Virus record (IMG/VR): IMGVR_UViG_3300027985_000657
Location: 1-59,197 of that record
From: a virus
Taxonomy: Duplodnaviria > Caudoviricetes
Length of the DNA: 59,197 nt
Reading direction: 5' to 3' (one strand)
Shown here: positions 1,366 through 32,420 of the stretch, piece after piece
How the letters are laid out: the number at the start of each line of letters is the position of its first letter
Position numbering within the stretch: position 1 is the first letter of the stretch
Made by a program: the position numbers and the translations under genes
Notes under the pieces: generated by a model
Databases searched by the model: none
What the model saw: only the letters and a program-made list of their open reading frames with translations
What the model was told of the DNA's origin: nothing

Positions 1366-2448
1366 TTATGGGGTTATCAATAGATTACTTCCATCAGTTA
1401 CAATAGTTGGTAATTGACCATCCCAAATTCCTAGATACTCGAGGTATTTTACATACGATAATAGAGCATCAATTTCTTCTTGAGTATGACCATCGGTATT
1501 GACAACTAAAGAACCATCCGTAGCTTGTGTAATTTCAAATCCCAATGATTGAGCAACAAATGCAATCTTACTTGAATATGCCATAGCTTCTGCTTCAGCG
1601 ATAGCTTTGATTGCATTAGCCTCACCGATAGCTTTGGCTAGAGCTGCATTAGCTTCACCCTCTGCTTTGGTTAAAGCTTCGAGAGCGTTTTGTTCAGCAA
1701 TCAATACTGCATATTCAGCTTCTTGTAATTGTTTTTCGAGTTCAGCCTGTTGTTTCAAAATTTCTTGTTCAGCAAGCTTTGTACTTTGTAATAGAGCTTC
1801 AAATTCTGGAGTATAGACAGTATTTTTCAGTTTTATTTGATATACATTAATAAAGTACTGATTAAAACTGTTAGATAACTCTGTTTGAACATCGCTCACA
1901 TATTGAGCCTTAAGTGTTGTTAGTTCTCTAGCACTGTATGTACTAGCAACTGCCTCTGTAGCAGCCCAAATTGGATTTTGTAGTAGAGTTTCAAGATTTT
2001 CCAATGTGTTGTATCTTAAATATAAATCATTAATTTTGGTAGGGTCTACCTGATACTCGATTGTGAATGTGATTTCTACTGCTTGAAGATCTGAAGTATA
2101 TACTTCTCGTACTACTTCTGTTGTTCTAATTTTCTTATCATATTTGTGATACACTTCAAAGAATCCTTTGGATTGAATACCGGCAGTATTAACCGTATCT
2201 TTAACAACTCCAAATTCAGTTACAACATAAACCGATTGTGCATCCGTGATCTTATAGGTATTGAAACCATAGATAATCATAAATAATGCAACAACAGCAA
2301 GGATTGTGAATAGCGTACCACGCTTATTCAATTTTGATGCTTTCTCTGATGAATTTTCATTGTATGCTTTTGTAAATTTTACAGCTGCAACAATTCCGAA
2401 TACAATGAGTAATACAATACTAATAATTCCTAAAATTAATCCTAACAT
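1366..2448 (-). CDS. SPFH/band 7 (prohibitin/HflK-like) membrane protein
   Basis: Two N-terminal TM helices, VVTEFG...G motif, AEA/AxA-rich coiled coil, C-terminal WDGQLP. Confidence 0.85.
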   Translation of the reverse strand: MLGLILGIISIVLLIVFGIVAAVKFTKAYNENSSEKASKLNKRGTLFTILAVVALFMIIYGFNTYKITDAQSVYVVTEFGVVKDTVNTAGIQSKGFFEVYHKYDKKIRTTEVVREVYTSDLQAVEITFTIEYQVDPTKINDLYLRYNTLENLETLLQNPIWAATEAVASTYSARELTTLKAQYVSDVQTELSNSFNQYFINVYQIKLKNTVYTPEFEALLQSTKLAEQEILKQQAELEKQLQEAEYAVLIAEQNALEALTKAEGEANAALAKAIGEANAIKAIAEAEAMAYSSKIAFVAQSLGFEITQATDGSLVVNTDGHTQEEIDALLSYVKYLEYLGIWDGQLPTIVTDGSNLLITP

Positions 2449-3236: not shown

Positions 3237-3896
3237 CTATGCTTTGTGGCGTTTAGTCTTTTTCTTAGACTTTTTATACGCCGATGCTTTCATATCTTTA
3301 AGGCTCCCAATAGCCAAAAGAATGTCTTTACGTTTTTTTAAATCTTGTATTTCAATAAATCGATTAAGTACTTCTTCATTAATAATTCCAGTACTTGAAG
3401 AAACCGAATTGAAATATAATTTTAGTTCCTTAATGTCCTCATCATAATCTTTGATTACGTCCGCTATCTCTTGTGCGTGTTTCGGGGACATGATTTTAGA
3501 GTACATCTCAAACATTCTCAAAAGAAATTTATCCTTGTCGATTGCCGGATATACTACTAGAAATGCTTCATTAAGATAATATAAAGCACCAAGAATCTCT
3601 TTCTTAGGAACCACAAAACAAATTTTAAAACCATAGATTGTAACCATTTTAATAGCATCTTCTGCATATTTCATAGCCCAATCTTCACTTTCAAGGTTAT
3701 AATCATCTAATGATAATATTTTATAATCGTCATAGATTGACAGGTAAACCTCTTGTCCCATTCCAGGGTATGCTGCAACAATAAAACCGCGAACCTTGTT
3801 TTCCATAAGTTTTTGTACGGCTTCTATTTTTTTGATACTTGCTGGTGCGCCTACTCCGGCAGCAACAACAATTCCTTCTGTTTTATCTTTATCCAT
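3237..3896 (-). CDS. Hypothetical protein, possibly a degenerate P-loop kinase-like fold
   Basis: 219 aa; FIVAAYPGMGQE resembles a Walker A lacking the Lys. Confidence 0.65.
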   Translation of the reverse strand: MDKDKTEGIVVAAGVGAPASIKKIEAVQKLMENKVRGFIVAAYPGMGQEVYLSIYDDYKILSLDDYNLESEDWAMKYAEDAIKMVTIYGFKICFVVPKKEILGALYYLNEAFLVVYPAIDKDKFLLRMFEMYSKIMSPKHAQEIADVIKDYDEDIKELKLYFNSVSSSTGIINEEVLNRFIEIQDLKKRKDILLAIGSLKDMKASAYKKSKKKTKRHKA

Positions 3897-4136: not shown

Positions 4137-4150
4137 AATAATGCTTCCTC

Positions 4151-4178
4151 CTATAATAAAGGATGTAAAAACTACGAA
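4151..4178 (-). promoter_or_regulatory. Phage promoter-like motif copy
   Basis: TTCGTAGTTTTTACATCCTTTATTATAG. Confidence 0.7.
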
Positions 4179-4199
4179 TTGTAAAAGAGAAAGCCCATG

Positions 4200-4265
4200 T
4201 TAGGCTTTATTCTTCTTAAATAGATTTGACATAAAATTTTTAAATTTTTCCCAAAATTTTTTCAT
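4200..4265 (-). CDS. 21-aa amphipathic cationic micropeptide MKKFWEKFKNFMSNLFKKNKA
   Basis: Own promoter motif (4284-4311), AAAGGATGG RBS, terminator hairpin overlapping the stop. Confidence 0.65.
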   Translation of the reverse strand: MKKFWEKFKNFMSNLFKKNKA

Positions 4266-4283
4266 CTTATATACCATCCTTTC

Positions 4284-4311
4284 CTATAAAGAGGTATGTA
4301 AAATTTGCGCA
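4284..4311 (-). promoter_or_regulatory. Phage promoter-like motif copy
   Basis: TGCGCAAATTTTACATACCTCTTTATAG. Confidence 0.7.
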
Positions 4312-4313
4312 AA

Positions 4314-4628
4314 CTATGCATCCCAATTATCAATGATTACATTGAAACCACATTGTTGCATTAGCTCTGTAGAACTGATATATTTCAACCCATAAAATGT
4401 GTGTGTTGATAGGTAATGATCTTGGTATGGTATTTGTCGCGCATAACTTTTTCGTTTGCTATATGGTCTTGGATTTTTTGCTCGAAGCCATCCATTATAA
4501 TCTCCAACCTCAAGAATATGACTTTTTGATTCATTTGGAATGACTTTTAACTCTTCCCAATTTTTTATTAATGTTGCTGTTGGATACTTTCTTTTTAAAG
4601 CATCCATAGTATGTACATGATGTGCCAT
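4314..4628 (-). CDS. Hypothetical protein
   Basis: 104 aa, TAATG-coupled to the upstream ORF. Confidence 0.7.
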   Translation of the reverse strand: MAHHVHTMDALKRKYPTATLIKNWEELKVIPNESKSHILEVGDYNGWLRAKNPRPYSKRKSYARQIPYQDHYLSTHTFYGLKYISSTELMQQCGFNVIIDNWDA

Positions 4629-5104
4629 TATTCTTTCACTCGAATGTTTTGTTCTAGGAGTTTTTGTGTGTTTTTTACTGCTTTTTGAAGAATATCATTT
4701 GAAATTTCAATTGGATATACTTCTCCAGTGCGTGCTTTACCAGCACAAACACAATCAACAACCATTTCAAGAACATCTAGAAGATCAACATTTTCTGGAC
4801 ATTTATCATTAAGATGATGTCTTTCTGTTAAATGAATCTGCCACCAAGGTAGCTTTTTAAGATCAACATTTTCTGGATCTTGTTGCTTCTTAGAGAAATC
4901 CTCAAAGAATTGTTCAAAATGTGAAATTTTTGTATGATCGTGGTTATTACCAATTATCTTTAATTCATCTGATAAAGCAAATAGTACAGTTCGAACTGCA
5001 GTGATATGCTTGGTTGTATCAAGAAGAATTAGATCTTTTCTTAATGCTCCGTCAGCAGATCTTGTATCTGCATTTGGAGTTCTTTCTATGTATACTGTAT
5101 TCAT
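4628..5104 (-). CDS. His/Asp-rich conserved phage protein (HD-like metal-binding)
   Basis: HI...HDHTK...H..ERHH...D..EM..D pattern. Start reassigned to MNTVY (AAAGGAGAA RBS) because the longer ORF overlaps the tmRNA. Confidence 0.7.
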   Translation of the reverse strand: MNTVYIERTPNADTRSADGALRKDLILLDTTKHITAVRTVLFALSDELKIIGNNHDHTKISHFEQFFEDFSKKQQDPENVDLKKLPWWQIHLTERHHLNDKCPENVDLLDVLEMVVDCVCAGKARTGEVYPIEISNDILQKAVKNTQKLLEQNIRVKE

Positions 5105-5136
5105 AGATTCTCCTTTTCTTATTAGTAATTTAATAT

Positions 5137-5536
5137 TGGTGGAGGTGAGGGGAGTCGAACCCCTGTCCAAAATATTCAAATACACCAATTTCTACAGGGT
5201 TATTAACTTTTCGAATTTAAAACACTAAAAATATAAAGTATACGAAACTCTTAATAGTGAGTAAAAGGTAGAAGTTGCTTATCCCATCACACCTCTCATA
5301 GATGAGGGCAAGCCGTATTATTTTTGAGAACCAAGACACCTACGACTAAATATCAATGGTTCACCTCTCACTTTTCTTAGTAAGAGAAGACTGTTCTGGA
5401 TTTGAAGCCGGCGATTACGCTTTGGAACCAGCCGACGATTTTTTGGATAAAGTTTCCGTTTATTTTGTGGATTTTAGTTCTCCCGAACCCCTGCTTATGA
5501 TGTTCATCGTATCCTGTCGAATCCTAGAACACCCCC
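5137..5536 (-). ncRNA. ssrA: tmRNA (transfer-messenger RNA)
   Basis: 5' GGGGGTGTTCTAGGATTCGACAGG; 3' GACAGGGGTTCGACTCCCCTCACCTCCACCA; acceptor stem with a G3.U pair, T-arm and encoded CCA; internal tag frame 5457-5377. Confidence 0.93.
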
Positions 5537-5547
5537 ATTAAATTACT

Positions 5548-5967
5548 TTATTCTTCTTCTTTCAGTTTCATTTCTAAGCGATTTATTTTGTATTCTCTTA
5601 TTTGCTGTACCTGATTTGAAATATCAAGTACGTCAACAACTGAGTCGATAACAATAAGCACGTCCGCTATCTCTTCTGCGATGTTTGAATTGTATCCACG
5701 ATTTCGTTTACTTATTGCTTGAATTACTTCTGCACATTCTTCAACGAGCATTCCAAATTGTGATTCCGGACCATATAATTCTACAGCCCTTTTAATCAAT
5801 TCTTTTTCTCGTTGTGTTGGAAGTCGGTAATCATTTACTAATTTTATTTTTGGATTTTCAATTGATACACTGGCAATTGCTTTCTGAAATAATGCTGCAT
5901 CTTCTGGATTTTGGAAAGTTGTAACCATATCACCGATAGATGATTTCCAATGAACACTATAATCCAT
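5548..5967 (-). CDS. MazG-like NTP pyrophosphohydrolase
   Basis: YG...EECAE..QAISK...EEIADV motifs. Confidence 0.8.
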   Translation of the reverse strand: MDYSVHWKSSIGDMVTTFQNPEDAALFQKAIASVSIENPKIKLVNDYRLPTQREKELIKRAVELYGPESQFGMLVEECAEVIQAISKRNRGYNSNIAEEIADVLIVIDSVVDVLDISNQVQQIREYKINRLEMKLKEEE

Positions 5968-6136
5968 TTTTGCGATCCTCTATAAGTTTTTTACGTCTCT
6001 CCATAAAATTTTTAAATTGTTCTGATTGACGAAAAGCTATTTGATCCTCTAATATCTTTATTAATTTATCAGCAAGCTCATTTGCAAGCTCATCAATATC
6101 TTTGATAGAGCGCACTGGCTCATTAACAGCACCCAT
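5957..6136 (-). CDS. Small hypothetical protein, 59 aa (MGAVNEPVRSIKDIDELANE...)
   Basis: Fills the gap exactly and abuts both neighbours; below the track cutoff. Confidence 0.6.
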   Translation of the reverse strand: MGAVNEPVRSIKDIDELANELADKLIKILEDQIAFRQSEQFKNFMERRKKLIEDRKNGL

Positions 6137-6880
6137 TTAACTTACATGCTCCGCAAATGCAAGTGCCATGAGTTTACAATCATCTAATGTTTTAGCAGTA
6201 AACCCAACTGGTAAACTTATATCACGTTCTGGATGTTCTTTTAATCCTTCTTCATTCCATCCAGAAGATGCGGTACAGTCTCCTATCTTAACGACATCAC
6301 CAATTTTAAATCCTTGGATTGCTCGATGAGAATATCCATACCATTTTTGACGTTTACTAGAAAAACCAATGCATGCGGTTCCTCTAGGATTATCAAATGG
6401 AAGATTCTCCAAAGTAAGCATATCAATTTTATACTTCTTAAACAATTTTAATTGATCGATAGTCCCTACATACATTTCTGGACGATCAAAAATTGTTAGA
6501 TTAGGCATTAACAATACACCCGGTTGTTTTTGTTTACTGATGTATCTGCGTGCTCTGAAGTATGCAATTGATTCAAAAATATCCCTGAAAAAACGACGGA
6601 TGTGCCATCTAATTTTTACAAAGATTGTTATTTTTTCTTTTGCTATAGGTGCTTCAATAATTGCAGCACTAGCAGTTGTTTCTGTTGTTTCATTCATTTT
6701 AATAAGTTCTCCTTTATTAATTTTTGTAATGAATTCCATATCCGTTATTGAGGTTTCTAATATAGTCATTGAACCATCTCGTTTAATATGAACAGACGTA
6801 TCACCAATAACTTTTCCTTTGTCATCTTCTAATGGTAGTCGATGTATACCAGGGGTAATATCATACGTATGTTTATTCAT
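6137..6880 (-). CDS. Hypothetical protein
   Basis: Long ORF with C-terminal IGFS...WYGYSHRA..GF.IGD motif; start reassigned to MNKHTY. Confidence 0.7.
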   Translation of the reverse strand: MNKHTYDITPGIHRLPLEDDKGKVIGDTSVHIKRDGSMTILETSITDMEFITKINKGELIKMNETTETTASAAIIEAPIAKEKITIFVKIRWHIRRFFRDIFESIAYFRARRYISKQKQPGVLLMPNLTIFDRPEMYVGTIDQLKLFKKYKIDMLTLENLPFDNPRGTACIGFSSKRQKWYGYSHRAIQGFKIGDVVKIGDCTASSGWNEEGLKEHPERDISLPVGFTAKTLDDCKLMALAFAEHVS

Positions 6881-7127
6881 TTTCAATAACCTTAATAATA
6901 TTGCCATCAATATCTATTGTTATTTTAAAGACTACTGTGCTAGGACATTCTGGGCATGGAAATGCCATTAAATACTCTAATGGATTAGGCTGTAAAACTA
7001 ATACTACCGAATCCGATGAATTCCTTGTTCTTTTAGAAGCCATTTCTTCTATTAAAACTTTTATTTCATCTGAAGTCATCTCTTCTGAATAACCGCAATA
7101 TGGACATTTAATTTCATGTTTTAACAT
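6873..7127 (-). CDS. Zn-ribbon protein
   Basis: CPYCG...CPECP; AAGGAGAA RBS. Confidence 0.7.
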   Translation of the reverse strand: MLKHEIKCPYCGYSEEMTSDEIKVLIEEMASKRTRNSSDSVVLVLQPNPLEYLMAFPCPECPSTVVFKITIDIDGNIIKVIENE

Positions 7128-7461
7128 GATTTTCTCCTTCTAATTTTTCTTTAATTACTTGGTAATAATCATCTAGTATTTTTCTAGTTGGATTCCCAGG
7201 ATTCCACTCATCAATTGCATAACCATAAATGAATTTTAATAAATATAATTCATCTATATTTCGTACAAGAATTCCAATTAGTGGATTCGTCCAATAACCG
7301 TCCCCTGATTTTTCAATACCGCCAATTATAAATTTTTTATTTTCAAACATAATAATATCATTTAGCGAATATTTGATATCTGAATTTTTACGGGTATCGA
7401 CAACATAAACAAGCCCTCGTCCAATAATATTGTGTTTACTTTCAAATACTGTGTTTTCCAT
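7114..7461 (-). CDS. Hypothetical protein
   Basis: ORF coupled to the helicase end; start reassigned to MENTVF. Confidence 0.6.
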   Translation of the reverse strand: MENTVFESKHNIIGRGLVYVVDTRKNSDIKYSLNDIIMFENKKFIIGGIEKSGDGYWTNPLIGILVRNIDELYLLKFIYGYAIDEWNPGNPTRKILDDYYQVIKEKLEGENHVKT

Positions 7462-8776
7462 CTTTTTCACCATTAACAAACACTGGTGCAAAACCAAGTT
7501 CATTAAACTTCTTCTTTCTTTTTTGTGCATCACGTATTGCCAAATCGATTTTACTATTACTTCTAAAATGATAATAATATAAATCGGAAAATGGTGTATT
7601 CATTCTGTCTGTTCTTCCACCAGCTTGTTGAACAACTCTCCATGAATAGTTCTGTGAGTAGAATACAATAGTATCTGTTGTGATGCAGTTCCACCCTTCT
7701 GAACCAGCGGCATATTGAACTAAATATACCCAATAATCCCCCTGCGGAATTTCTTCATGAAGATGCCCATTCCATTCGGCTTTTGCAATACGTTCATCTA
7801 CAAGATGTACCCAAGGAATATCTTCTTGAATAATCTTGTCTTGTTTAAATTCATTCTTCTCTGTAACAGCACGTGCATCACCAAATAGTTTGCGTAAAAG
7901 CTCTAATTCATAATCAAAATTATAGAAAATGATTGCTTTTGGCTTATTTTTTAGAATATCCATTAGCGCATAAAGCCTTGATTTGTCGCTATTAACGATT
8001 TTTCGTAAAATATAACAAAATTCACTCGCATTCTCAATAGGCGCGTCTGTGTACGGATTCCAGCGTTTTGTGGCTGTGTTTGCATACAACACTCTGTCAT
8101 ATTCAACAGTTATATGCTCATGATGCTGAGTTGTTGAACGAACCATCCTCATATCAACTAATATATGATTTCTTAGTCGTATTAGGGTTCCTTCATTAAC
8201 CCATCGTTCGATTTTAGGGTATTTTGTGAATCTAGACCATACTGCATGCTTTCTTTCGAAGTCTGTTTTGTTTTTATACCAACCATTTGCAATAAATACC
8301 GGCATATAGTCAGACCATGTATCACCTGGTGTAGCAGACAACAATATCCATTTATTACTCTTTACAATCTTAAGGAATGATTTTGTCCATGCACCATACC
8401 CAATCACACGTTGTTCATCAAATATAAAGAAAGCATCTTCAACATCAACGTATTTTTTAATATTATTCCAACTGTCAATAAATATATTATGATGATATCT
8501 ACTAAACTGTGGATCTGTACTCATATGAAAATTAGCTAATTCCAATTCCCATTCAAATTTATCTCTCTTTAGGGCTGTTGTAATAATATAAAGGTCCATT
8601 GGTTTGGCCTTCATTTTTACATATGTCTCGGTGTTTACCTCGCCCCCATTGAGAGTATAATAGTAGGCAAGAGATGTTCTACTTTTTCCTGAACCAACAC
8701 CACCATTTAATATACAGCCATTTCTCATTTTCATGAGAGCATCATATTGGTAGTCTCGCAGTTGTACTCCTGCCAT
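7442..8776 (-). CDS. SF2 (SNF2/DEAD-like) DNA helicase
   Basis: LRDYQ Q-motif, GVGSGKS Walker A, FDEQ, LLSATPG, SEGWN, QAGGRTDR. Confidence 0.9.
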   Translation of the reverse strand: MAGVQLRDYQYDALMKMRNGCILNGGVGSGKSRTSLAYYYTLNGGEVNTETYVKMKAKPMDLYIITTALKRDKFEWELELANFHMSTDPQFSRYHHNIFIDSWNNIKKYVDVEDAFFIFDEQRVIGYGAWTKSFLKIVKSNKWILLSATPGDTWSDYMPVFIANGWYKNKTDFERKHAVWSRFTKYPKIERWVNEGTLIRLRNHILVDMRMVRSTTQHHEHITVEYDRVLYANTATKRWNPYTDAPIENASEFCYILRKIVNSDKSRLYALMDILKNKPKAIIFYNFDYELELLRKLFGDARAVTEKNEFKQDKIIQEDIPWVHLVDERIAKAEWNGHLHEEIPQGDYWVYLVQYAAGSEGWNCITTDTIVFYSQNYSWRVVQQAGGRTDRMNTPFSDLYYYHFRSNSKIDLAIRDAQKRKKKFNELGFAPVFVNGEKDGKHSI

Positions 8777-17172: not shown

Positions 17173-17946
17173 CTAGTAGCTGTATACTTGTTTTGGTCTT
17201 GTGTTATATCTAATTGCACCACATGGTTCATTATCCGGTGTTAAAACAGTATCAATACTAATATCAATGATGCCTTGTTTACCGTCTTGTATTGACCAAC
17301 CCATGGTTTCACCAAGAACAGTTTCTTCTAACCCCAGAATATCAAACCAATCATTCAAAGTAGTTACACCAGACAAATCACCCATTGCTTGAGCATTCAA
17401 TTCGTTCGCTGCCTTTGATATGCGATTCCAATTAGTTTTGAAATATCTTCCAGACAATTCTTCATAAAATAAACTATCGCCGTCTCCAATAAGGGTAACA
17501 TTATTTATTCCATCTTTATATGTCTTTCTGACTTTTTCTTCTGAAATACTTTCCTCAATCTTCTCAAATTTCTTATCGCCGATTAAGGTTTTTGTTGTTT
17601 CTTTATACTCTTGAAGAGCAGTTTCTGACAATGTATATGCAGCTGCCAACATAATATTCCTTTTATTTGCTATGCGATTTCCAGCAATTATACAAGGGAT
17701 TGACATGCCGGTACTTACAACAACAGGTAAATAATCTTTCCAGGATAACTTAAATATTTCTTCAATAGTAAGTTTATCCTTTTTTAATTGTTGTTTTCTT
17801 TGTTCAACCTTCTTTGTTACTTTTGCAGTTGCTTTTATTCCCCATACAACTGAAAATAACATACCAGAGATACCCATTGTCATAAGTATCTCGGGTTCAT
17901 GTTGCGCTAAAAATGGTTTTATTGTTTTTAATATGTTACTCTTCAT
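17173..17946 (-). CDS. Membrane-associated paralog 2 (DUF6353-like)
   Basis: HEPEIL...KATAK...YLPV...LAAAYTLSE..L.EY...FYEELSGRYF...LN.W...LGL...MGW. Confidence 0.75.
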   Translation of the reverse strand: MKSNILKTIKPFLAQHEPEILMTMGISGMLFSVVWGIKATAKVTKKVEQRKQQLKKDKLTIEEIFKLSWKDYLPVVVSTGMSIPCIIAGNRIANKRNIMLAAAYTLSETALQEYKETTKTLIGDKKFEKIEESISEEKVRKTYKDGINNVTLIGDGDSLFYEELSGRYFKTNWNRISKAANELNAQAMGDLSGVTTLNDWFDILGLEETVLGETMGWSIQDGKQGIIDISIDTVLTPDNEPCGAIRYNTRPKQVYSY

Positions 17947-18889
17947 CCTCGTTGACCTCTCCATCATTGTCATTTTTGATTTTTATTAGTTTACCATCAG
18001 GACCTTTAGTATATCCGAACATTTCAAATGTGGCATACTCATGATTTGGATTATCCAGGAATGGGTCAAAATCTAAATCAAGACGTTCTTCATAGTCTTC
18101 GACACCAAGCATAATTGGATCTTCCAACCAAGAAATGACTTTATATGGTATTTGAGGTTCGACATCATCAATTGTAATCTCATCTACTAATTGCATGTGA
18201 ATCCAGATTATATCTTTTGTTTCAGATAAATAATCCATTGTCCATCCCCATGAAGAAAGGTATTCTTTCGTAATTGAAGTATCAATAATATTAGCTTTTG
18301 CTAATTCTACAAATTGTAGCAACGTTACTCCTTCAAAAACTTCATCTGTTGGATATCCATTCAAAGTTCCATTCATCATTTCATTGATTGTAGCATATGC
18401 ATACATAACATCTTCGGGTAGGGCTTGAAAATATCCAATTAGTTCATCATAGTAAAGTTCTCTACGATCCCCTTCATCTCTAGTTATGTGCTGTTTTACT
18501 GCTTTTTGTTCCTTTTGTGATAAACTTTTCAGAATATCATTGTGTGCATCAACACCAAGTACAGATTTTACTTGATGTTTGTATTTTTTCCACCCTTGGT
18601 CGGCAATTACAGCCATTGACATAATAGAAGCCTGCGCTTTATTACTCATAATTGTTGAGCCAACTATTGATGAAATTGTTGCTATTCCAGCTATTCCAGT
18701 TGGAATATAAATCTTGTACAAAGCCATTATCTTTTCTTTTAAAGGTAGTGATTCAAAATTATGAATTTTCTTTCGTACAATTGATTCTTTCATTGCTGCT
18801 TTTCTTGCTAATATTGCCGTCCCTACAGTTCCTATTGCTCCAACCACGGAAAAGCCAACTGCAAGTACTTGTTTTGTTTTTAGATTCAC
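17936..18889 (-). CDS. Membrane-associated paralog 3 (DUF6353-like)
   Basis: GTG start with AAGGAGAACTTAG RBS; two hydrophobic segments, YIPT, YYDELIGYF, WGW. Confidence 0.7.
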   Translation of the reverse strand: MNLKTKQVLAVGFSVVGAIGTVGTAILARKAAMKESIVRKKIHNFESLPLKEKIMALYKIYIPTGIAGIATISSIVGSTIMSNKAQASIMSMAVIADQGWKKYKHQVKSVLGVDAHNDILKSLSQKEQKAVKQHITRDEGDRRELYYDELIGYFQALPEDVMYAYATINEMMNGTLNGYPTDEVFEGVTLLQFVELAKANIIDTSITKEYLSSWGWTMDYLSETKDIIWIHMQLVDEITIDDVEPQIPYKVISWLEDPIMLGVEDYEERLDLDFDPFLDNPNHEYATFEMFGYTKGPDGKLIKIKNDNDGEVNEDEE

Positions 18890-20984: not shown

Positions 20985-21013
20985 AAAATCTTCTCCTTTT
21001 TATTTTTATGTTC

Positions 21014-21041
21014 CTATAATAAGAAATGTAAAATATGCTAT
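21014..21041 (-). promoter_or_regulatory. Phage promoter-like motif copy (variant)
   Basis: ATAGCATATTTTACATTTCTTATTATAG, overlapping the upstream stop codon. Confidence 0.6.
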
Positions 21042-22910: not shown

Positions 22911-22924
22911 AAATATCAATCCTC

Positions 22925-22952
22925 CTATAATAAGAGATGAAATTTATGCGTT
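22925..22952 (-). promoter_or_regulatory. Phage promoter-like motif copy (variant)
   Basis: AACGCATAAATTTCATCTCTTATTATAG. Confidence 0.6.
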
Positions 22953-25299: not shown

Positions 25300-25322
25300 T
25301 ATTAAAAACCTCCTTTAGTTTT

Positions 25323-25350
25323 CTATAAAGTGATATGTAAATTATGCGAA
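25323..25350 (-). promoter_or_regulatory. Phage promoter-like motif copy
   Basis: TTCGCATAATTTACATATCACTTTATAG (identical to 27308-27335). Confidence 0.8.
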
Positions 25351-25351
25351 T

Positions 25352-25483
25352 TTAGGCAAATATAAAATACAAAATAATACCGATTATAGACCATATTAGC
25401 AATGAAAATACTGTTGCCCAAAACATGCCTATAAAGAAATCAACACCAGATCGTTTCTCCATTTTTTCATCTTTGTATTCCAT
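25352..25483 (-). CDS. 43-aa membrane peptide (MEYKDEKMEKRSGVDFFIGMFWATVFSLLIW...)
   Basis: TGATG-coupled to the upstream ORF, long hydrophobic C-terminus; below the track cutoff. Confidence 0.6.
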   Translation of the reverse strand: MEYKDEKMEKRSGVDFFIGMFWATVFSLLIWSIIGIILYFIFA

Positions 25484-26136
25484 CATTTATCACCATGATG
25501 AATTGAAAATATCTTATTTCTTGTATGGTCTTCTACGCGGTATTTTGTTTCATCCCAAACTTCTTCATTACCTTTTTCAAGTTTTGATAATATTGGTCCA
25601 TTTTCATTACATGGAACTGTATATTCATCATATATATGAAAAACCGTTCTTGGTTCTGAAAAATGACTATGATCATCCACGAGTTCATAATACAAAACCT
25701 CATCAAATGGATCATTAATTTTAAATTCCTCATCAAGTTTTGCATAATGTTCTCTAACTTCATGATCACGTATACCAAATAGGTCCGCAATCATTCTTAC
25801 AGGGAATATGTAACCCCTAAAACTAGCCCATATAATTTCATATATATGATGTGTTTGAGGATTAAAGAAATCAGACATATCTCCACCAAATGTTGAATAA
25901 TCTGATAAAAAGATGTTTTGTGTGTAGTGTCTAATTAAAGTACCTAACAATTCTGGGTGCATACTTAAAAAATTAAACATTATTACATTACCAAGATTTC
26001 TTGGTGACATTAATTGTCTAGTATACTCATCTGACAATTTACCAATGGCATAATTTTTAACATAATAATCAATTTCTCTATGTCTGTTTACTGCCCAAAA
26101 CCACCCAATATTTGAAATATCAATCGTTTGTTTCAT
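25483..26136 (-). CDS. Hypothetical protein
   Basis: Start reassigned to MKQTID (AAGGAGAATTTAG RBS). Confidence 0.7.
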   Translation of the reverse strand: MKQTIDISNIGWFWAVNRHREIDYYVKNYAIGKLSDEYTRQLMSPRNLGNVIMFNFLSMHPELLGTLIRHYTQNIFLSDYSTFGGDMSDFFNPQTHHIYEIIWASFRGYIFPVRMIADLFGIRDHEVREHYAKLDEEFKINDPFDEVLYYELVDDHSHFSEPRTVFHIYDEYTVPCNENGPILSKLEKGNEEVWDETKYRVEDHTRNKIFSIHHGDK

Positions 26137-26161
26137 TTCTAAATTCTCCTTCTTTTTTTTA

Positions 26162-26680
26162 TTATTTTTTCTTATAAACGTATTCATAACTGTCAGTTAA
26201 CCAAGGCATTACTTTACTATCTCTAATAAAGAAGTGCTCTTGACCATCTGGTCGTCCAATTTTAATACTTGGACTTAATGTAACATTACCATTTGGCGAT
26301 TTTATAAATCCCCAATTATCACCATTTGGTTGTGATAGCCAGTGTTTGACTGGTATCTGTGTAAGATCATCAAATCCCGGCGATCTAAATACAACATAGT
26401 CATTAAATACTAACATTACATCTCTGTCAATATCTCCTAATTTTGAAAAATCAAAGTTCTTATTAACGAATTGTGTTTTATATACCGTAACTTTCGGTAA
26501 TAATTTAATCTGAACTTTGCGATATTCAATTGCTGAATCATCAACCACTTCAACATCACTATGCATAACTCCTCGATACTTATATGATGTTCTAACAGAT
26601 TCAAATATCAATGGTATTACTACACCATGGCTATATGTGTCGACAACATCATATACTTCACCTTTAAATTTTACTTTCAC
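26162..26680 (-). CDS. Hypothetical protein
   Basis: GTG start; C-terminal W.....TLSPSI...HFFIRD motif. Confidence 0.65.
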   Translation of the reverse strand: MKVKFKGEVYDVVDTYSHGVVIPLIFESVRTSYKYRGVMHSDVEVVDDSAIEYRKVQIKLLPKVTVYKTQFVNKNFDFSKLGDIDRDVMLVFNDYVVFRSPGFDDLTQIPVKHWLSQPNGDNWGFIKSPNGNVTLSPSIKIGRPDGQEHFFIRDSKVMPWLTDSYEYVYKKK

Positions 26681-26685
26681 GTCCG

Positions 26686-26883
26686 CTATCTCCCTAAAAT
26701 ATGTTTTTCGTAATACTCTTTTACATCCTCAAGTTTCATTTCCTGAAGACTTCCAGCATTGTAAATATCCATCATATGGATAAGTTTATTTCCATACCTA
26801 TCTCCGGCTTCACTTACTTGTCGAATATACCAGTCTTTAGTATTTGATTCTGATGATGCTGTTGTTTCAATAATTGTACTCAT
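26686..26883 (-). CDS. Hypothetical protein
   Basis: 65-aa ORF. Confidence 0.55.
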   Translation of the reverse strand: MSTIIETTASSESNTKDWYIRQVSEAGDRYGNKLIHMMDIYNAGSLQEMKLEDVKEYYEKHILGR

Positions 26884-26925
26884 TTTAATACACTTTTAGC
26901 ACAAAATAAAAGAGAATAGCATTTG

Positions 26926-27183
26926 CTATTCTTGTGCCAAGATGAGTTCTATTTCAGTAACTTTACCATCAATCATTTTGTAACTTTTGATAACATTACC
27001 ATCTTCATCTTGAAGCTGTGCTATTTCTCCTTCTTTCAAAGTTTTCTTTAATTCTCTTTTAAATCTTGCAATGTGTATCTGCTGTGCAGCAAATGTAACA
27101 CCCTTTCTTAATACAAAGGTAGTGGTGTTAACAATCGCTAGTACTGCTAAAACACGAATGCTCGTTTCTAAAATTCTTTTCAT
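26926..27183 (-). CDS. Small membrane-anchored protein (cassette gene)
   Basis: Promoter 27206-27233, AAGGAGG RBS, AGAATAGCA/TGCTATTCT terminator over the stop. Confidence 0.75.
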   Translation of the reverse strand: MKRILETSIRVLAVLAIVNTTTFVLRKGVTFAAQQIHIARFKRELKKTLKEGEIAQLQDEDGNVIKSYKMIDGKVTEIELILAQE

Positions 27184-27205
27184 TTTTAAAAACCTCCTTA
27201 GTTTT

Positions 27206-27233
27206 CTATAAAGTGATATGTATTTTTTGCGTA
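27206..27233 (-). promoter_or_regulatory. Phage promoter-like motif copy
   Basis: TACGCAAAAAATACATATCACTTTATAG. Confidence 0.75.
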
Positions 27234-27305
27234 AAAAATAAAAGATAAGAATACAAAAATTCGTCTACTACACTAAGTACGTCCGAGATTTTCCTTATCT
27301 TTCTT
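27233..27305 (-). ncRNA. Candidate ~70-nt hairpin small RNA with its own promoter
   Basis: Lies between two promoter motifs, has no ATG-initiated ORF, has an AAAGATAAG/CTTATCTTT closing stem and ends in a U-tract. Confidence 0.55.
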
Positions 27306-27307
27306 TC

Positions 27308-27335
27308 CTATAAAGTGATATGTAAATTATGCGAA
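27308..27335 (-). promoter_or_regulatory. Phage promoter-like motif copy
   Basis: TTCGCATAATTTACATATCACTTTATAG. Confidence 0.8.
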
Positions 27336-27348
27336 TTTGCGCAAATAG

Positions 27349-27392
27349 AAAAAACCAAGTCCGTGTGCAATAAATGCGTTAACTTGGTTTTT
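27349..27392 (-). terminator. Terminator closing the late (structural) operon
   Basis: AAAAAACCAAGT...ACTTGGTTTTTT. Confidence 0.75.
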
Positions 27393-27406
27393 ATTAGTTT
27401 ATGTTA

Positions 27407-27664
27407 TTATACGATAAGTGTCCAGGTAGGAACTCCACCAAGCATTACCAATTTGTAATCTCCATCAGCTAATTGTGATGGATCAGGGATTGGATTAGCT
27501 ACAATTGTTACTTCTCCACCAACAACTTGCAGCATATATAATCCATCTGCTAATTCAGCTGGGTCTGATGGTAATTCATTCAATGAATCAAACACCAGTG
27601 TTGCTTCCGTTGGAACTGCTGAAGGATCAGAGTTCTGAAACTTAATTTTAATTTTCTTTTCCAT
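27407..27664 (-). CDS. Hypothetical protein with an internal DP..LADG.Y.L...GG repeat (two copies)
   Basis: SDPAELADGLYMLQVVGG / PDPSQLADGDYKLVMLGG. Confidence 0.7.
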   Translation of the reverse strand: MEKKIKIKFQNSDPSAVPTEATLVFDSLNELPSDPAELADGLYMLQVVGGEVTIVANPIPDPSQLADGDYKLVMLGGVPTWTLIV

Positions 27665-27677
27665 TTTGAATTTCTCC

Positions 27678-28100
27678 TTAGTTTAATTTTTGATTTTTTA
27701 TTACAAGATTGTAGATTGCTACTACTGATTCAATCATTTCTCCGACACGTTCTGCGTCGAATTCAATACCACGAGATTCACATACTTCTTTTATAGAATC
27801 AAGGGCTTTCTGTTTCTTTTCAGGTCCTGTAAGTCCATTGAGATCTTCAACAGCATACACAATATCTTTTACAATACCCAAAAGTTCTCTTGTGTTCTTA
27901 TCTTTGACTAAAGAATATAACATCGGAGCAAACTGAATAATTGCACCAATAATCACACCCAAACCAAATATAATATTATTAATGTCAGCTTGATTTACTG
28001 TAACATTAACACCGAACAACCCAAGTATTGCAAATACAATACCTGTTAGGAACACAAGAAATGCAACAATTTTTTGAATTAATGCATTAGTTATTTTCAT
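27678..28100 (-). CDS. Holin-like protein (LL-H type C-terminus)
   Basis: Two TM helices then V.AVE....G.EKK..A.....IESVV pattern; post-tail position. Confidence 0.7.
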   Translation of the reverse strand: MKITNALIQKIVAFLVFLTGIVFAILGLFGVNVTVNQADINNIIFGLGVIIGAIIQFAPMLYSLVKDKNTRELLGIVKDIVYAVEDLNGLTGPEKKQKALDSIKEVCESRGIEFDAERVGEMIESVVAIYNLVIKNQKLN

Positions 28101-28656
28101 TCTCGCTTTCCTCCTTATTCTTACGAGTCTTTCCCAATGTTATTTCAACACGAGCAGCTTGAACAAGTTCGTCCATTCTCTTAATATCACTATTACCACC
28201 TAAGGATGTATAGTCTGAAAACCATTTATCCCAGTTGGTTTGATCTGTTTTATTAAAGACGCCCTTTTTATCAAACTTATCATGGAAAAGGTGATTCAAT
28301 TTGATTTGAAGATCTGTCATCTGTGAGTGGTGAAGCTTACCTATTGTATCTTTAATTTCACCAATATCTTTTAAAATTGGTTTTAACTCACTTTTAATTT
28401 CACTAATGATTGCATCTTTTGTTAGTTTTAATTCCATTTCACGTGCTTTATGATCACGTTCAATATTCAATAACCACGGACAACTTACTTTTCGATCTTC
28501 CTGTACTGCACTTATTACTTTATCATTAAATGATTTCCTTACAGATTTTTTACCTTTCTTTAAGTATCTAAATCCTCTAATAGCGGAATCTAAAACACTT
28601 ATGGTAAATATAAGTCCACCACCAATGATAAGAAACCATCTCCAAAACTCTGACAT
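28087..28656 (-). CDS. Lysis-region membrane protein (N-terminal TM helix plus coiled coil)
   Basis: N-terminal TM helix and Y..LGGN motif typical of holin-adjacent genes. Confidence 0.65.
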   Translation of the reverse strand: MSEFWRWFLIIGGGLIFTISVLDSAIRGFRYLKKGKKSVRKSFNDKVISAVQEDRKVSCPWLLNIERDHKAREMELKLTKDAIISEIKSELKPILKDIGEIKDTIGKLHHSQMTDLQIKLNHLFHDKFDKKGVFNKTDQTNWDKWFSDYTSLGGNSDIKRMDELVQAARVEITLGKTRKNKEESENENN

Positions 28657-28674
28657 ATTTCTTCCTCCTATATA

Positions 28675-29268
28675 CTATTTTATATGTAATTCTTTTTCTA
28701 TCCAATCTATTAATTGCCCAACATTACCATTTGATGTATATAGGGTAATAATATCTTTTGTCATTTCATCAGTTATAACAGTAGACTTATTTGTTAATAT
28801 TTTTAAAATAACATAGAAATGAACCCATCCCTTTGTTAGTTTTTCTCTTTTATAACGTTTGCCAACTGTTTGTATGTATTTTGTTCTCATGTATTCACGA
28901 TATTGTTCATCATATTGAAATATATTCCAAGTATAGTCCCAATTTCCGTAAATTACATCTCTTAAACAATAAAAATAATTATGTAATAATACTTGATTAA
29001 ATCCTTCATTTTTTCCATTTGTATTAAATGATAGTAAATCATTAATTACTGTCTCGTCTCGTATTACTAAATCATAATCAATACCATCAATTTTAATAAA
29101 TTTTCTAAAATATCCTTTTGGATAATTAGAACATATCGCAACAAAATCTAGGTCATTTGGATTATCGTGAAATATCTGTGACCCTGTCTTAAATATTTCA
29201 ATAATTTTTGTATTAGGAAATCCCTGTTCTTCAAGGATGTCATCAAATAATTGCTTAATATCTATCAT
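28675..29268 (-). CDS. Pol-beta-superfamily nucleotidyltransferase-like protein
   Basis: hGS...DxD signature (FKTGSQIF...NDLDFV) and a candidate third Asp in DYDLV. Confidence 0.6.
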   Translation of the reverse strand: MIDIKQLFDDILEEQGFPNTKIIEIFKTGSQIFHDNPNDLDFVAICSNYPKGYFRKFIKIDGIDYDLVIRDETVINDLLSFNTNGKNEGFNQVLLHNYFYCLRDVIYGNWDYTWNIFQYDEQYREYMRTKYIQTVGKRYKREKLTKGWVHFYVILKILTNKSTVITDEMTKDIITLYTSNGNVGQLIDWIEKELHIK

Positions 29269-29531
29269 TCTTGTTGTACCTCATACTGCATATATATGAG
29301 ATTCATATCAAGAACAACACCCAAGTCACCCAAACCCATTGATTCTGCTGGATAATATGATTCAAGCCAAGCTAAACCTTCTGCTATACCATCAACATCT
29401 TGACTTGCATCTAAAAATACATCATAATCCAAACCGGATGAAGATGAATATGTAATATATACCCAAACTTGTACTGGGGTAGATCCACCAGCAGCTTGAC
29501 TTTGTATGATACCATTTGTTCTATTTAACAT
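29265..29531 (-). CDS. Small tail-fibre-associated protein
   Basis: Homologous to an inserted domain in the 32421 tail protein. Confidence 0.7.
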   Translation of the reverse strand: MLNRTNGIIQSQAAGGSTPVQVWVYITYSSSSGLDYDVFLDASQDVDGIAEGLAWLESYYPAESMGLGDLGVVLDMNLIYMQYEVQQE

Positions 29532-29532
29532 A

Positions 29533-30837
29533 TTAATTCACCGCTGTTGAGCTAAGTAAGCCAATTGCCATCCACTGACTCGCACCAATCTTAATAAATG
29601 TAACCCCCATATATCGTCCGCCAACATAACAACTTCCAGAACCGGCAGTCCCATCTATATTTCTATAGATTGTTGCTCCACTAGCATTAATATAAACAGC
29701 ACCAGTTCCCATTTTAAGAATAGTAAAGCTGTCTCCAATTTCAAAAGATCCACCCTCATTATCAGCATCCATATACATATACAGAGTTGATGTGCTATTG
29801 AACATTATTGTTTGATTTTTCTTAATATCATAGGAGTGTTGATGTGTTGATACAGATACAAAATCTGATTTTAAATCTATCTCATATGGTAATGGTGAAT
29901 ATAAATGGAATGTTCCATTCGTAAACTGATATGCACTATGATCTTCACCTAAAACTAGCGTATTTCCTGTGTCATGCATATGACCCAAGTATATATATAC
30001 AAAACCATCATCTGATGTTGGTATTGTTTGTGTAAGCCATGATGTATATGTTGTATTATCTAGAACAAAATATCCATTTGCATCAATCGTTCCTTTTAAA
30101 TACATCGGTTTATAGGCAGTCCATCCGCCGGATTGATTAGCCGTATAATTTAGAGTTGATATTGTATCTCTTGGATACCAATAGTATCTACTTACAGCAT
30201 CTGCTGCTAGATCTGTTGTTGATCCATACCAGAATATCTTACCATCAATTAGAAATGGTTGTTGTGATACTGTTTTAGTTGTCCCTGTGCCATTTTCAAG
30301 TGTTAATGGATACATTTTTCCATCGGAACCTTCCATAACTATTTTATAATCATAAATTGTTGCTCCTGCTTGAAAATATCCATCACTTCTATCATGATAT
30401 GTTTCATTACTATCATACGGATCACCAGCAACAACCCAACAACCACCGTTTAAAACACTATCATACACTAGCGGTATAATATAATTTGTGGTGAAATGCG
30501 TTGTTAATAGTGAATTACTATAACGATATATTGTTTTAGCACCCAGACCATTAATATTTAGTGTACATGATGATGCACCACTAGATGGTAATTTGAAATG
30601 AACAAATAATCCATCATAATATGAGTCAATTCCAGTTACAGTTGCCGCCCATACACCAGATGATCCAGTTGCATTGTTAATAAAATAAACCTTTGTTTTG
30701 TCATCAATATCACTTTGCATATTTGCGAGTGATGTATTTAGGGATATTACTTGATCCATTGTAGTTTGGGGGTATAGAATATCCCAAATACTACCAGATG
30801 ACTTCCATTTTTTAATTGTTCCTTTGTAAGTAGACAT
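29533..30837 (-). CDS. Tail fibre / receptor-binding protein
   Basis: TLNINGLGAKTI motif, G/S/T-rich beta composition, N-terminus shared with the 30862 ORF. Confidence 0.8.
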   Translation of the reverse strand: MSTYKGTIKKWKSSGSIWDILYPQTTMDQVISLNTSLANMQSDIDDKTKVYFINNATGSSGVWAATVTGIDSYYDGLFVHFKLPSSGASSCTLNINGLGAKTIYRYSNSLLTTHFTTNYIIPLVYDSVLNGGCWVVAGDPYDSNETYHDRSDGYFQAGATIYDYKIVMEGSDGKMYPLTLENGTGTTKTVSQQPFLIDGKIFWYGSTTDLAADAVSRYYWYPRDTISTLNYTANQSGGWTAYKPMYLKGTIDANGYFVLDNTTYTSWLTQTIPTSDDGFVYIYLGHMHDTGNTLVLGEDHSAYQFTNGTFHLYSPLPYEIDLKSDFVSVSTHQHSYDIKKNQTIMFNSTSTLYMYMDADNEGGSFEIGDSFTILKMGTGAVYINASGATIYRNIDGTAGSGSCYVGGRYMGVTFIKIGASQWMAIGLLSSTAVN

Positions 30838-30861
30838 GTACTATACCCCTTTCACTTAATT

Positions 30862-31770: not shown

Positions 31771-31791
31771 ATTTTACTTCCTCCTTGTTGT

Positions 31792-32244
31792 TTATTCAGC
31801 AGGTGGTTGTGGTACCTCTTCTGCTGGTTGTGGTGGGTTCATATTAACGAAAATACTCTTAAACTTAGTATAGTAAAAGATTTGTTGGTTAATTGAATTA
31901 TCCATCATTTCAAATAATGTTAAAATTGTTTGATTTTGTTCAGCAATATTGCCTTGTAATTCTCCAAGTTGTGTCCTAAATGTTAATATCATTTCCTGTT
32001 CTTTTTGTTGATGAATTTTTATAGTTTCATTTGCGAGGCGAACAGTCTCAAGGTCTTCTTGTCTAGCGCCTTTTATGATATCATATTTGCTTTTCATTTT
32101 GTCATAATTTGCAATCTTACCTGCGTTCAAAGCAATTACCTGATCTGCTGCTTCTAATTTTTCAATTAAAGCATTTTTTGTTAATTTTAAATATGGGCTT
32201 TTCAATTCTGTACTCACATTATTCATTTGCTGACACAACTCCAT
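31792..32244 (-). CDS. Coiled-coil hypothetical protein
   Basis: Helical, Q/E-rich; exact start uncertain. Confidence 0.65.
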   Translation of the reverse strand: MELCQQMNNVSTELKSPYLKLTKNALIEKLEAADQVIALNAGKIANYDKMKSKYDIIKGARQEDLETVRLANETIKIHQQKEQEMILTFRTQLGELQGNIAEQNQTILTLFEMMDNSINQQIFYYTKFKSIFVNMNPPQPAEEVPQPPAE

Positions 32245-32398
32245 GTTCTTCTAGAGTTACTTTTGATCCAACTATTGCTGTTACAATATATGTTTGACCA
32301 TTAGCAAAATCAATCAATTGACCAATTGAATATAATTCTTCTCCGTTAATGTTAGCCCATCTTCCATTAACTATTTTTTTTGCGATAATAATAATCAT
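32219..32398 (-). CDS. Small hypothetical tail-region protein
   Basis: AAGGAGAACTAA RBS before MIIIIAKK. Confidence 0.6.
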   Translation of the reverse strand: MIIIIAKKIVNGRWANINGEELYSIGQLIDFANGQTYIVTAIVGSKVTLEEHGVVSANE

Positions 32399-32420
32399 TT
32401 TTTTAGTTCTCCTTCTTTTT

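Follow-up and report, generated by a model that had tools for sequence, protein, structure and literature searches.

A phage-borne tmRNA gene with a long hydrophobic tag that lacks the usual ending

A transfer-messenger RNA (tmRNA) whose tag lacks the usual ending could show whether phages care for ribosome rescue alone or also for the fate of the tagged protein. Such a case is raised by the IMG/VR virus record IMGVR_UViG_3300027985_000657, an uncultured phage genome with an estimated completeness of 98%, the whole of which (59,197 bp) is the window analysed here. Its minus strand carries a one-piece tmRNA gene at 5137-5536, with a tag frame of 26 codons. A reading made from the sequence alone had proposed that this tag forms an amphipathic helix in place of a canonical degron, directing rescued products to the membrane or to other proteases, or protecting them. 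We find the tmRNA to be genuine and, judged by its sequence, probably functional. Our best reading, to which we give a probability of roughly 0.5, is that of a host-derived tmRNA which would rescue ribosomes during infection and whose Mollicutes-style hydrophobic tag would either serve as a Lon-type degron or be under relaxed constraint. This is a modest addition to the known phage tmRNAs.

The identity of the gene is clear. ARAGORN predicts a one-piece tmRNA of 400 nucleotides (nt) with an encoded CCA end, and the Rfam model RF00023 covers the same 400 nt over its full length (model positions 1-374 of 374), with 114.2 bits (E 6.5e-44) where the gathering score is 47. Both results were unchanged when the entire record was scanned; for comparison, two tmRNAs of bacterial genomes in the candidate host branch reach 115.8 and 133.4 bits. 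The tRNA-like domain is intact, with a 7-pair acceptor stem in which G3 stands opposite U to form the alanine identity pair, a T-arm, a discriminator and the CCA end. The regions of the four pseudoknots are also spanned by the Rfam alignment, at low posterior, with several non-standard pairs and without homologues for covariation. SmpB (PF01668) gave no match at E ≤ 1 in the record, as the sequence-only reading had stated, and because the record encodes no SmpB that of the host would be needed.

These features bear on the suggestion that the RNA is carried as a passenger without activity, or works as a decoy: by titrating host SmpB it would block trans-translation in the host, as reported for the RNA of mycobacteriophage DS6A (PMC4131195, PMC11915505). 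Besides this precedent, the suggestion can draw on the presence of the tmRNA in this phage alone among the relatives compared, and on the divergent middle of the RNA, which reaches 114 bits with RF00023 where most of the bacterial tmRNAs compared score higher (116.9-185 bits for primary copies). However, the match is full-length, and acceptor stem, G3-U pair, T-arm, CCA end, resume context, frame and stop are all intact. An mRNA part would moreover be superfluous for a decoy, and little space separates the gene from its two same-strand neighbours, as expected of a gene in use. We therefore hold a passenger or decoy to be very unlikely.

The tag frame is supported by several features of the RNA. 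Directly after ...AAAAUAAAC, the frame opens on GGA (5457-5455) and reads GNFIQKIVGWFQSVIAGFKSRTVFSY up to a UAA (5379-5377), frame and stop together occupying 5377-5457. The Rfam alignment sets its consensus resume codon on this GGA with high posterior, and the site is unpaired in the predicted fold. In Escherichia coli a conserved, nearly invariant A within UAGUC sets the frame, which begins four nucleotides downstream (PMC2481249). The UAAAC of the phage RNA has its U and A at the same places, and it follows pseudoknot 1 at ~12 nt, as in E. coli. At its other end the frame closes within helix 5, with the stop where stem and loop meet, as is usual for tmRNAs; this supports the tag frame. The frame, the GGA resume codon and the 26-residue tag put forward by the sequence-only reading agree with the sequence, with the Rfam alignment, with the U-A-x-x-C ruler and with a 12-nt context discussed below, and GGA is very probably the resume codon. 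At this base composition an open frame of 26 codons is not in itself rare, its chance being ~0.13 by rough estimate.

ARAGORN, whose verdict differs from that of Rfam on this point, starts the tag 15 codons downstream in the identical frame, at a GCC, and reports the 11-residue tag AGFKSRTVFSY. Resumption at this codon would yield a tag of ordinary length with no long helix. The UAAUC that precedes the GCC also fits U(-5) A(-4) x x C, and 11 residues come near the usual tag length, 10 being the commonest (PMC11915505) and 9 the median of our own pool. Yet the GCC is located in the 3' strand of a 10-pair hairpin, whereas it is on GGA that Rfam puts the resume codon with high posterior, and the intact 12-nt lineage context sits at the canonical distance of ~12 nt past pseudoknot 1. 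ARAGORN also cut short two of 16 large-phage tags, described below, whose full frames are conserved. A start at GCC is thus unlikely; whichever codon is used, the C-terminal eleven residues and their odd ending are identical.

The resume context leads to a particular group of bacteria. We searched a genome collection with a pattern composed of the tRNA-like 5' motif TTCGACAGG, a spacer of N35-65 and ATAAACGGAAAC, the resume-context 12-mer being AUAAACGGAAAC. With the AUAAAC-GGA-AAC context the pattern gave 24 genome matches. Eighteen are tmRNAs by ARAGORN, every one with a tag starting Gly-Asn, and the remaining six have no RF00023 match and are due to chance. The names of all 18 fall in one branch of Bacillota: Erysipelotrichaceae, Traorella, "Mollicutes bacterium", Tenericutes, a Spiroplasma endosymbiont, Acholeplasmataceae, or unspecified Firmicutes/Bacillota. 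In this context-sharing branch some tags are 18, 20 or 28 residues long and contain several Phe, Ile or Met, and the Gly-Asn-Phe start of the phage tag recurs in the tags of two "Mollicutes bacterium" genomes. Because of the resume context and the Gly-Asn start, the tmRNA probably originated in the Erysipelotrichales/Mollicutes branch. The sequence-only reading presupposed that the host lineage does not have the same tag type. This fails in part, since all 18 context-sharing tmRNAs bear Erysipelotrichaceae-, Mollicutes- or Acholeplasmataceae-type names and include hydrophobic/aromatic tags of 18-28 residues.

The remainder of the RNA gave few matches. Its 3' 32-mer has at least 120 exact matches in genome contigs, including Clostridia, Erysipelotrichaceae and Verrucomicrobia, and says little about origin because it is identical in many bacteria. 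In 80 loci with this 32-mer, alignment to the phage tmRNA was confined to the 3' end, where 35-36 nt are identical in several Erysipelotrichaceae. We also compared 401 genomes from the order of an Erysipelotrichaceae metagenome-assembled genome (MAG), scoring the two best candidates per genome, and 254 matched. Among GenBank phages, BLAST found nine records with matches of 34-36 nt at the 3' end only. The 5' 24-mer of the tmRNA had no exact match in genome contigs or in metagenome contigs, three patterns (resume region, 5' end and back-translated tag) had none in IMG/VR viral contigs, and a degenerate tag pattern had none in metagenome contigs. As searches by exact or degenerate pattern or by BLAST, these would miss diverged relatives, and it is by such insensitive means that the phage tmRNA appears as an orphan.

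What, then, is the nature of the peptide? The tag has no Asp or Glu, a net charge of +3 and the ending -VFSY, and it contains four Phe, one Trp, one Tyr, three Ile and three Val. Its mean hydrophobicity of 0.26 compares with a mean of 0.105 and a maximum of 0.32 in collected tags. On the translation, hydrophobic residues do fall at positions 3, 4, 7, 8, 10, 11, 14, 15 and 18, as the sequence-only reading had listed, and also at 23, 24 and 26; its statements that acidic residues are absent and that the tag has no (L/F)AA ending are likewise correct. For comparison we pooled 126 ARAGORN tags from fetched bacterial loci, a pool in which at least five tmRNAs are counted twice and a few calls are evident errors. 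The endings of the pooled tags include -AA (93), -AC (13), -FC (7), -FA (5) and -AY (2, one tmRNA twice), and none of the 126 ends in -SY. From canonical ClpXP-type tags, which have ~8-14 residues and a hydrophobic-Ala-Ala end, the phage tag differs in its ending and, at 26 residues, in its length (11 residues if ARAGORN's start is taken). It agrees with Mollicutes-type tags in having at least 20 residues and being rich in hydrophobic and aromatic ones, and departs from them at the C-terminus, which there is aromatic-Ala or Ala-Phe-Ala; the nearest ending seen is the -Ala-Phe-Ala-Tyr of one Acholeplasmataceae MAG. Comparison with tag collections, which the sequence-only reading had advised, thus upholds the unusual ending, while the long hydrophobic type proves to be known in the same branch. 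tmRNA tags have been described as normally ending in a hydrophobic residue (PMC4131195).

In the order of that Acholeplasmataceae MAG, 50 of 61 genomes gave a tmRNA, with endings that include -AFAA, -AFAC, -AFC, -SFAF and a single -AFAY. As a separate observation, tags ending in Cys (-AFAC or -AFC) from this order (loci L285-L334) make up 20 of the 126 pooled tags, unlike the textbook Ala-Ala.

The proposed amphipathic helix found marginal statistical support. Over the whole tag the hydrophobic moment at 100 degrees is 0.248, a value equalled or exceeded in 25.5% of 5000 shuffles. The best 18-residue stretch (residues 2-19) reaches 0.497, as high as which came 405 of 10000 shuffles, a figure of 4% that is the best of several stretches and uncorrected; the best 14-residue stretch was matched by 516 of 10000 shuffles and the best 11-residue stretch by 1679 of 10000. 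The amphipathic signal is suggestive at best: it stands for residues 2-19 and is not clearly above chance for the tag as a whole. A purpose-built helix that takes rescued products to the membrane, guards them against proteolysis or is active in its own right would accord with residues 2-19, with the charge and lack of acidic residues, with an ending not among known ClpXP signals, and with a location in the same block as Tad6-like and MazG-like genes. Against it stand the ordinary moment of the whole tag, the uncorrected choice of stretch and the lack of any conservation behind the peptide. Lon, moreover, already explains long hydrophobic tags in the likely host branch (PMC8403727), and we regard a purpose-built helix as highly improbable.

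One feature of the frame itself stands out. Codons 8-17 form a G+C-rich hairpin that falls within an insertion relative to the Rfam model and has, by our own count, ~60% G+C against 40% for the tmRNA. No further copy of it is present in the window, as might have marked a repeated mobile element. MAFFT aligned an out-of-frame GCG-UAA in the hairpin with the last Ala codon and stop of host tags. An ancestral shorter frame, lost through a one-base change in an A-run, was considered and dropped as too weak, the hypothetical peptide also being without a canonical ending. Given the hairpin and a second in-frame UAAUC-GCC site exactly 15 codons on, it is plausible that an insertion or local duplication lengthened the tag, and this is the main reason to doubt selection on the peptide sequence.

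The tag would then be accidental: the phage would need rescue only, a structured G+C-rich insert or duplication would have lengthened the frame, and sequence and ending would both be unselected. In favor of this, the Rfam model treats both the 45 nt (15 codons) between the candidate starts and the hairpin as an insert; so do the base composition of the hairpin, the second UAAUC-GCC site and the marginal amphipathic signal speak for it; nor did the pattern searches find a homologue that shows conservation. In E. coli phage assays, tag function was reported as not critical for phage growth (PMC2481249). Conversely, the insert leaves the frame open, and the frame runs precisely to the canonical stop position in helix 5. 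Long tags can also matter to phages, since purifying selection acts on those of related large-phage tmRNAs. On balance an accidental origin of the tag is somewhat unlikely.

The large-phage tmRNAs came from a pattern search of viral sequences with C or U allowed at the last base before GGA, which gave 17 IMG/VR contigs. Sixteen are tmRNAs by ARAGORN or Rfam (L335-L351 without L348, which is not one). Their contigs measure 28-135 kb, and the tmRNAs of those inspected adjoin tRNA genes, several in tRNA arrays. All 16 tags have 23 residues and a Gly-Asn start, and most end in -VAFA (Val-Ala-Phe-Ala). Among their 11 distinct coding sequences the synonymous rate (dS) exceeds the nonsynonymous rate (dN) in 55 of 55 pairs (mean dN 0.195, mean dS 0.566); this 23-residue tag is under purifying selection. 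The second tmRNA of one MAG (L316:5001-5438) belongs to the same family and lies in a tRNA array near a polynucleotide-kinase-like gene. From this family it is seen that selection can maintain long Gly-Asn tags in phages whose hosts belong to this branch or stand close to it.

The tmRNA of our record resembles this family in its resume context (with C or U at -1, as set by the search pattern), in the first two residues of the tag and in having a long, basic, hydrophobic tag, with hydrophobic residues at 3, 4, 7, 11, 14 and 15 common to both. By BLAST, however, nucleotide similarity is found only at the tRNA-like ends and the resume region, and the family tags keep an Ala terminus where the phage tag ends in -FSY. 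Homology between the two tags was rejected as unproven, peptide similarity being not above chance.

That the gene belongs to the phage is supported by assembly and by synteny. A single Logan contig runs from 5139 through the tmRNA (5139-5536) and the MazG-like and helicase genes to 9000, and in Logan assemblies of the source runs the depth on the two sides of the tmRNA is 14.7 and 15.4. Both flanks are syntenic with phage relatives. The DNA past the tmRNA 3' end has homologues in L082-L084, three related phage records, that of L082 being complete with terminal repeats. One might nonetheless envisage an artefact, in which a bacterial tmRNA was misassembled onto the phage through a common 33-nt 3' end, or in which the record spans a prophage boundary. 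Logan contigs do break at 5136-5172, where a 33-nt stretch is common to other, more abundant tmRNAs of the sample, and short Logan pieces at the tmRNA 3' end have depths of 22-164 against ~15 for the phage; tmRNA genes are also common integration sites (PMC11915505). But the single contig across the tmRNA body, the equal depths and the synteny past the 3' end all argue against an artefact, which we hold to be extremely unlikely. A prophage in a host ssrA gene was rejected, because integration at the 3' end would have left the phage genes on the opposite flank of the tmRNA from the one they occupy, which is the 5' flank. The runs that hold the phage DNA are two of equal size, which may be the source, and a third with a small share; no RNA run is among them. 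One is labelled "hydrothermal vent metagenome", which we do not count as independent evidence of the habitat. The source runs also contain an AT-rich tmRNA contig with the same 3' end and a depth of ~17, similar to that of the phage.

The tmRNA and the genes just upstream of it are, among the loci compared, peculiar to this phage. We compared 32 related IMG/VR loci, which extend ~10 kb to either side of the polymerase gene unless the contig ends sooner. ARAGORN found a tmRNA in none of the 32 and Rfam in none of six of them, and none was present in five whole related records (L082-L084, polymerase identity 78-83%; L103 and L107, 62-63%). The five open reading frames (ORFs) between helicase and tmRNA have no homologues in the 32 loci, and L082, the complete relative, has nothing that corresponds to the DNA from ~7500 to 4314. 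The tmRNA thus sits at the edge of a ~2.4-kb block that is seen only in this phage among the loci compared.

From these elements we propose the following course for a host-derived tmRNA. The phage would most likely have acquired the gene from a Bacillota host with low G+C content, one of the Erysipelotrichales/Mollicutes branch, and the gene now resides in an accessory block with Tad6-like and MazG-like genes. A consensus scan showed no promoter of its own beside the gene, and because none was seen the RNA would be cut out of a longer transcript. By established tmRNA biology, the G3-U pair would allow its charging with alanine, and host SmpB would bind it. The charged tmRNA would enter ribosomes stalled on broken mRNAs; translation would resume at GGA, adding Ala and 26 residues, with release at the helix 5 UAA. 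The phage would benefit from free ribosomes at times when mRNAs of the host or the phage are being cleaved or when the host expresses less ssrA. The tag itself may be a diverged form of the long hydrophobic aromatic tags of the host branch. Tagged products would most likely still be recognised by a protease that responds to exposed hydrophobic sequence, Lon or perhaps FtsH rather than ClpXP; the tag may also be under relaxed constraint. A Lon-type degron or relaxed tag is more economical than a new targeting function because long hydrophobic mycoplasma tags are known Lon degrons.

Several points weigh against this account. The pattern and BLAST searches found no second copy of the tmRNA or tag from which covariation or selection on the peptide could be read. 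The phage DNA is confined to the runs of its source sample. Among the stronger matches listed from the 401 genomes of the Erysipelotrichaceae MAG's order, 121 weaker ones being apart from these, none covers more than the last 61 nt of the tmRNA. The tag ends in -FSY, where nearly all collected tags end in Ala or Cys, and its peptide score against the 23-residue family, 12, compares with a shuffle mean of 8.6 (standard deviation 5.4), with 1393 of 5000 shuffles reaching or exceeding it. Recognition by Lon or FtsH would hold by analogy, and the hairpin, together with the in-frame UAAUC-GCC site, suggests an insertion by which the tag may have grown longer by accident.

It is tempting to consider the tmRNA as a means of counter-defence, one that frees ribosomes when host nucleases cut RNA and alters the fate of products through a basic, hydrophobic, non-ClpXP tag. 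The nucleases in question may be toxins, anticodon or mRNA nucleases, or agents that attack the host tmRNA, and the products could be handed to another protease or to the membrane, or truncated phage proteins could be spared. The idea gains some context because the Tad6-like and MazG-like genes share the phage-specific block, and phage tRNAs have recently been shown to defeat the defence nucleases of PARIS, Septu and retron systems (PMC13728456), in a review where tmRNA has no mention. We consider the idea improbable. If it is true, the 16 large-phage tmRNAs with their selected 23-residue tag would be a second case of the strategy. A small-phage tmRNA beside Tad6-like and MazG-like genes would in any event be a convenient test case for tmRNAs as counter-defence tools. 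As a single sequence, found in a single sample and without a replicate, it contributes an example rather than a principle.

The coordinates of the features are collected in Table 1.

Table 1. Features of the tmRNA gene, its surroundings and the phage genome (window coordinates)
Feature	Coordinates	Strand	Basis or detail
Acceptor stem, 5' strand GGGGGUG	5530-5536	(-)	Sequence and Rfam alignment pairs
Frame-setting sequence UAAAC (U -5, A -4)	5458-5462	(-)	~12 nt past pseudoknot 1
Tag reading frame, 26 codons, GNFIQKIVGWFQSVIAGFKSRTVFSY	5380-5457	(-)	Translation
G+C-rich hairpin inside tag frame, ~10 pairs	5407-5436	(-)	Minimum-free-energy and centroid structures
Alternative in-frame start GCC	5410-5412	(-)	ARAGORN; UAAUC before it; 3' strand of predicted hairpin
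Helix 5, 8-pair hairpin holding final two codons and stop	5365-5386	(-)	Rfam and fold prediction
Stop UAA	5377-5379	(-)	Junction of helix 5 5' strand and loop (last stem pair and loop start)
T-arm and 3' acceptor end, 32-mer	5137-5168	(-)	T-arm sequence GGGGUUCGACUCCCC
Acceptor stem, 3' strand CACCUCC; ACCA	5141-5147; 5137-5140	(-)	Sequence and Rfam alignment
Phage-specific accessory block, ~2.4 kb	5137-7533	(-)	Five ORFs and tmRNA
Tad6-like protein (type I Thoeris inhibitor family)	6137-6910	(-)	PF25188, 118.1 bits, E 4.3e-34
MazG-like nucleoside triphosphate pyrophosphohydrolase	5548-5967	(-)	phrog_2245, E 9.6e-25; stop 11 nt upstream of tmRNA
DUF5662 protein	4628-5104	(-)	PF18907, 28.7 bits; AGGAG 6 nt before ATG
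Terminator-like hairpin	4190-4208	(-)	Past the block's last ORF
Holin	27678-28100		PF09682
Further phage genes			Large terminase; capsid-protease protein; primase-polymerase, 1307 residues; helicase; phrog_4291 polymerase, 991 residues

Among the neighbours, the Tad6-like ORF has 257 residues, with its Pfam match in the C-terminal half; Tad6 is reported to bind ThsB of type I Thoeris (PMC13728456). PADLOC gave nothing meaningful for eight neighbouring proteins. The DUF5662 gene, whose AGGAG lies ~20 nt after the tmRNA 3' end, has a homologue in L084 at 45.5% and falls in atlas clusters that are viral. As a substitute for SmpB its protein found no support, this being a viral family of unknown function. 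A 21-nt repeat (612-632, 3457-3477 and 5660-5680) lies in three ORFs, the MazG-like one included, and hints at two small MazG-like paralogues (600-815 and 3237-3896).

The carrier is a lytic-looking siphophage of ~59 kb and a relative of Faecalibacterium phage FP_oengus, its nearest named phage (polymerase identity 55.6%). No end repeats were found in the 59,197-bp record. A greedy ORF call placed 76 of 80 ORFs on the minus strand; G+C content is ~33%, coding density under translation table 11 is 91%, and UGA is the stop of 11 of 79 phage ORFs under that table. ARAGORN found no tRNA genes in the window. Relatives of the polymerase did not serve to name the host: the search of genomes gave four loci of 50-55% identity, two of them in MAGs with the label Clostridia, one in a Lachnospiraceae MAG and one in an unclassified bacterium, and these are too distant. 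A partial survey by Pfam and/or PHROGs of 11 ORFs of 25483-35834 and two at 17173-18889 recognised no peptidoglycan hydrolase that might serve as a host clue.

Further observations concern the genome at large. A 27-nt motif occurs six times, mostly between genes (4149-4175, 4282-4308, 21012-21038, 22923-22949, 25321-25347 and 27306-27332); it is unlike a sigma-70 promoter and could be a promoter for the phage polymerase (the phrog_4291 ORF) or a regulator site. That ORF, of 991 residues at 53765-56740 (-), matches phrog_4291 with 1174 bits under the PHROGs label 'RNA-dependent RNA polymerase'; in a DNA phage, a phage-encoded transcription enzyme is more likely than this label. Short direct repeats of ~11 nt occupy the left end (8-166). 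Stretches of 25-36 nt in 132-170 are 100% identical in L082-L084, genomes that elsewhere are only ~75% alike, and mark a candidate packaging or replication site. In-frame tandem repeats are found at 46389-46508 (15 nt x 6), within the capsid-protease ORF, and at 52141-52288 (33 nt x 4). The product of an ORF at 1366-2448 (-) has a hydrophobic segment near its N-terminus and matches the SPFH/Band 7 domain (PF01145, 78 bits). The large terminase at 48728-50473 (-) has 77-78% protein identity to many Streptomyces phages, the remaining genome being unrelated in DNA, and appears to be a very conserved terminase type.

Both phage tmRNAs (PMC4131195, PMC7162821) and long hydrophobic tags (PMC8403727) are already known. 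The phage RNA is like the one-piece SsrA (RF00023) of Erysipelotrichaceae, Mollicutes and Acholeplasmataceae in its full-length match to the model, its AUAAAC-GGA-AAC context, its Gly-Asn tag and its helix 5 stop. It is unlike bacterial SsrA in being phage-borne and in the middle of the RNA, which matches none of the compared sets (80 loci, 401 genomes, 24 loci and 55 loci). From the SsrA of that branch it departs further in its 26-residue tag and in ending in -FSY instead of -(L/F)AA, -AFA or -AFAC.

The tag has a parallel in the mycoplasmas. The long hydrophobic/aromatic SsrA tag of Mycoplasma pneumoniae (27 residues) is reported to be degraded mainly by Lon (PMC8403727), and the phage tag is like the Lon-degraded tags of M. 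pneumoniae and Mesoplasma florum (PMC8403727) in length, in hydrophobic and aromatic enrichment and in belonging to the same broad branch. Mycoplasma tags, however, end in aromatic-Ala, and their hosts are without ClpXP and in many cases read UGA as Trp, whereas the phage reads UGA as stop.

Among phages, tmRNAs have been described in the mycobacteriophage Bxz1 group and Bacillus phage G (PMC4131195), in huge phages (PMC7162821) and in Streptomyces BE-cluster phages (PMC11237712). Our search of the literature found no paper devoted to the tag sequences of phage tmRNAs; viral genomes are covered by the tmRNA database on which PMC11915505 draws, and this may already contain the present tag or similar ones. 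The DS6A relic, reported to hold little beyond the tRNA-like domain and to inhibit tmRNA (PMC4131195, PMC11915505), is likewise a phage-borne ssrA derivative that depends on host SmpB, from which our tmRNA differs in having kept the whole mRNA part. With the other printed phage tmRNAs it has in common a complete ssrA gene, no need for a phage SmpB and a presumed part in the upkeep of translation. Those of stated size, however, belong to large phages, the huge phages exceeding 200 kb (PMC7162821) and Streptomyces phage Amabiko measuring ~131 kb (PMC11237712), whereas the tmRNA described here is carried in a small accessory block by a 59-kb phage that has no tRNA genes.

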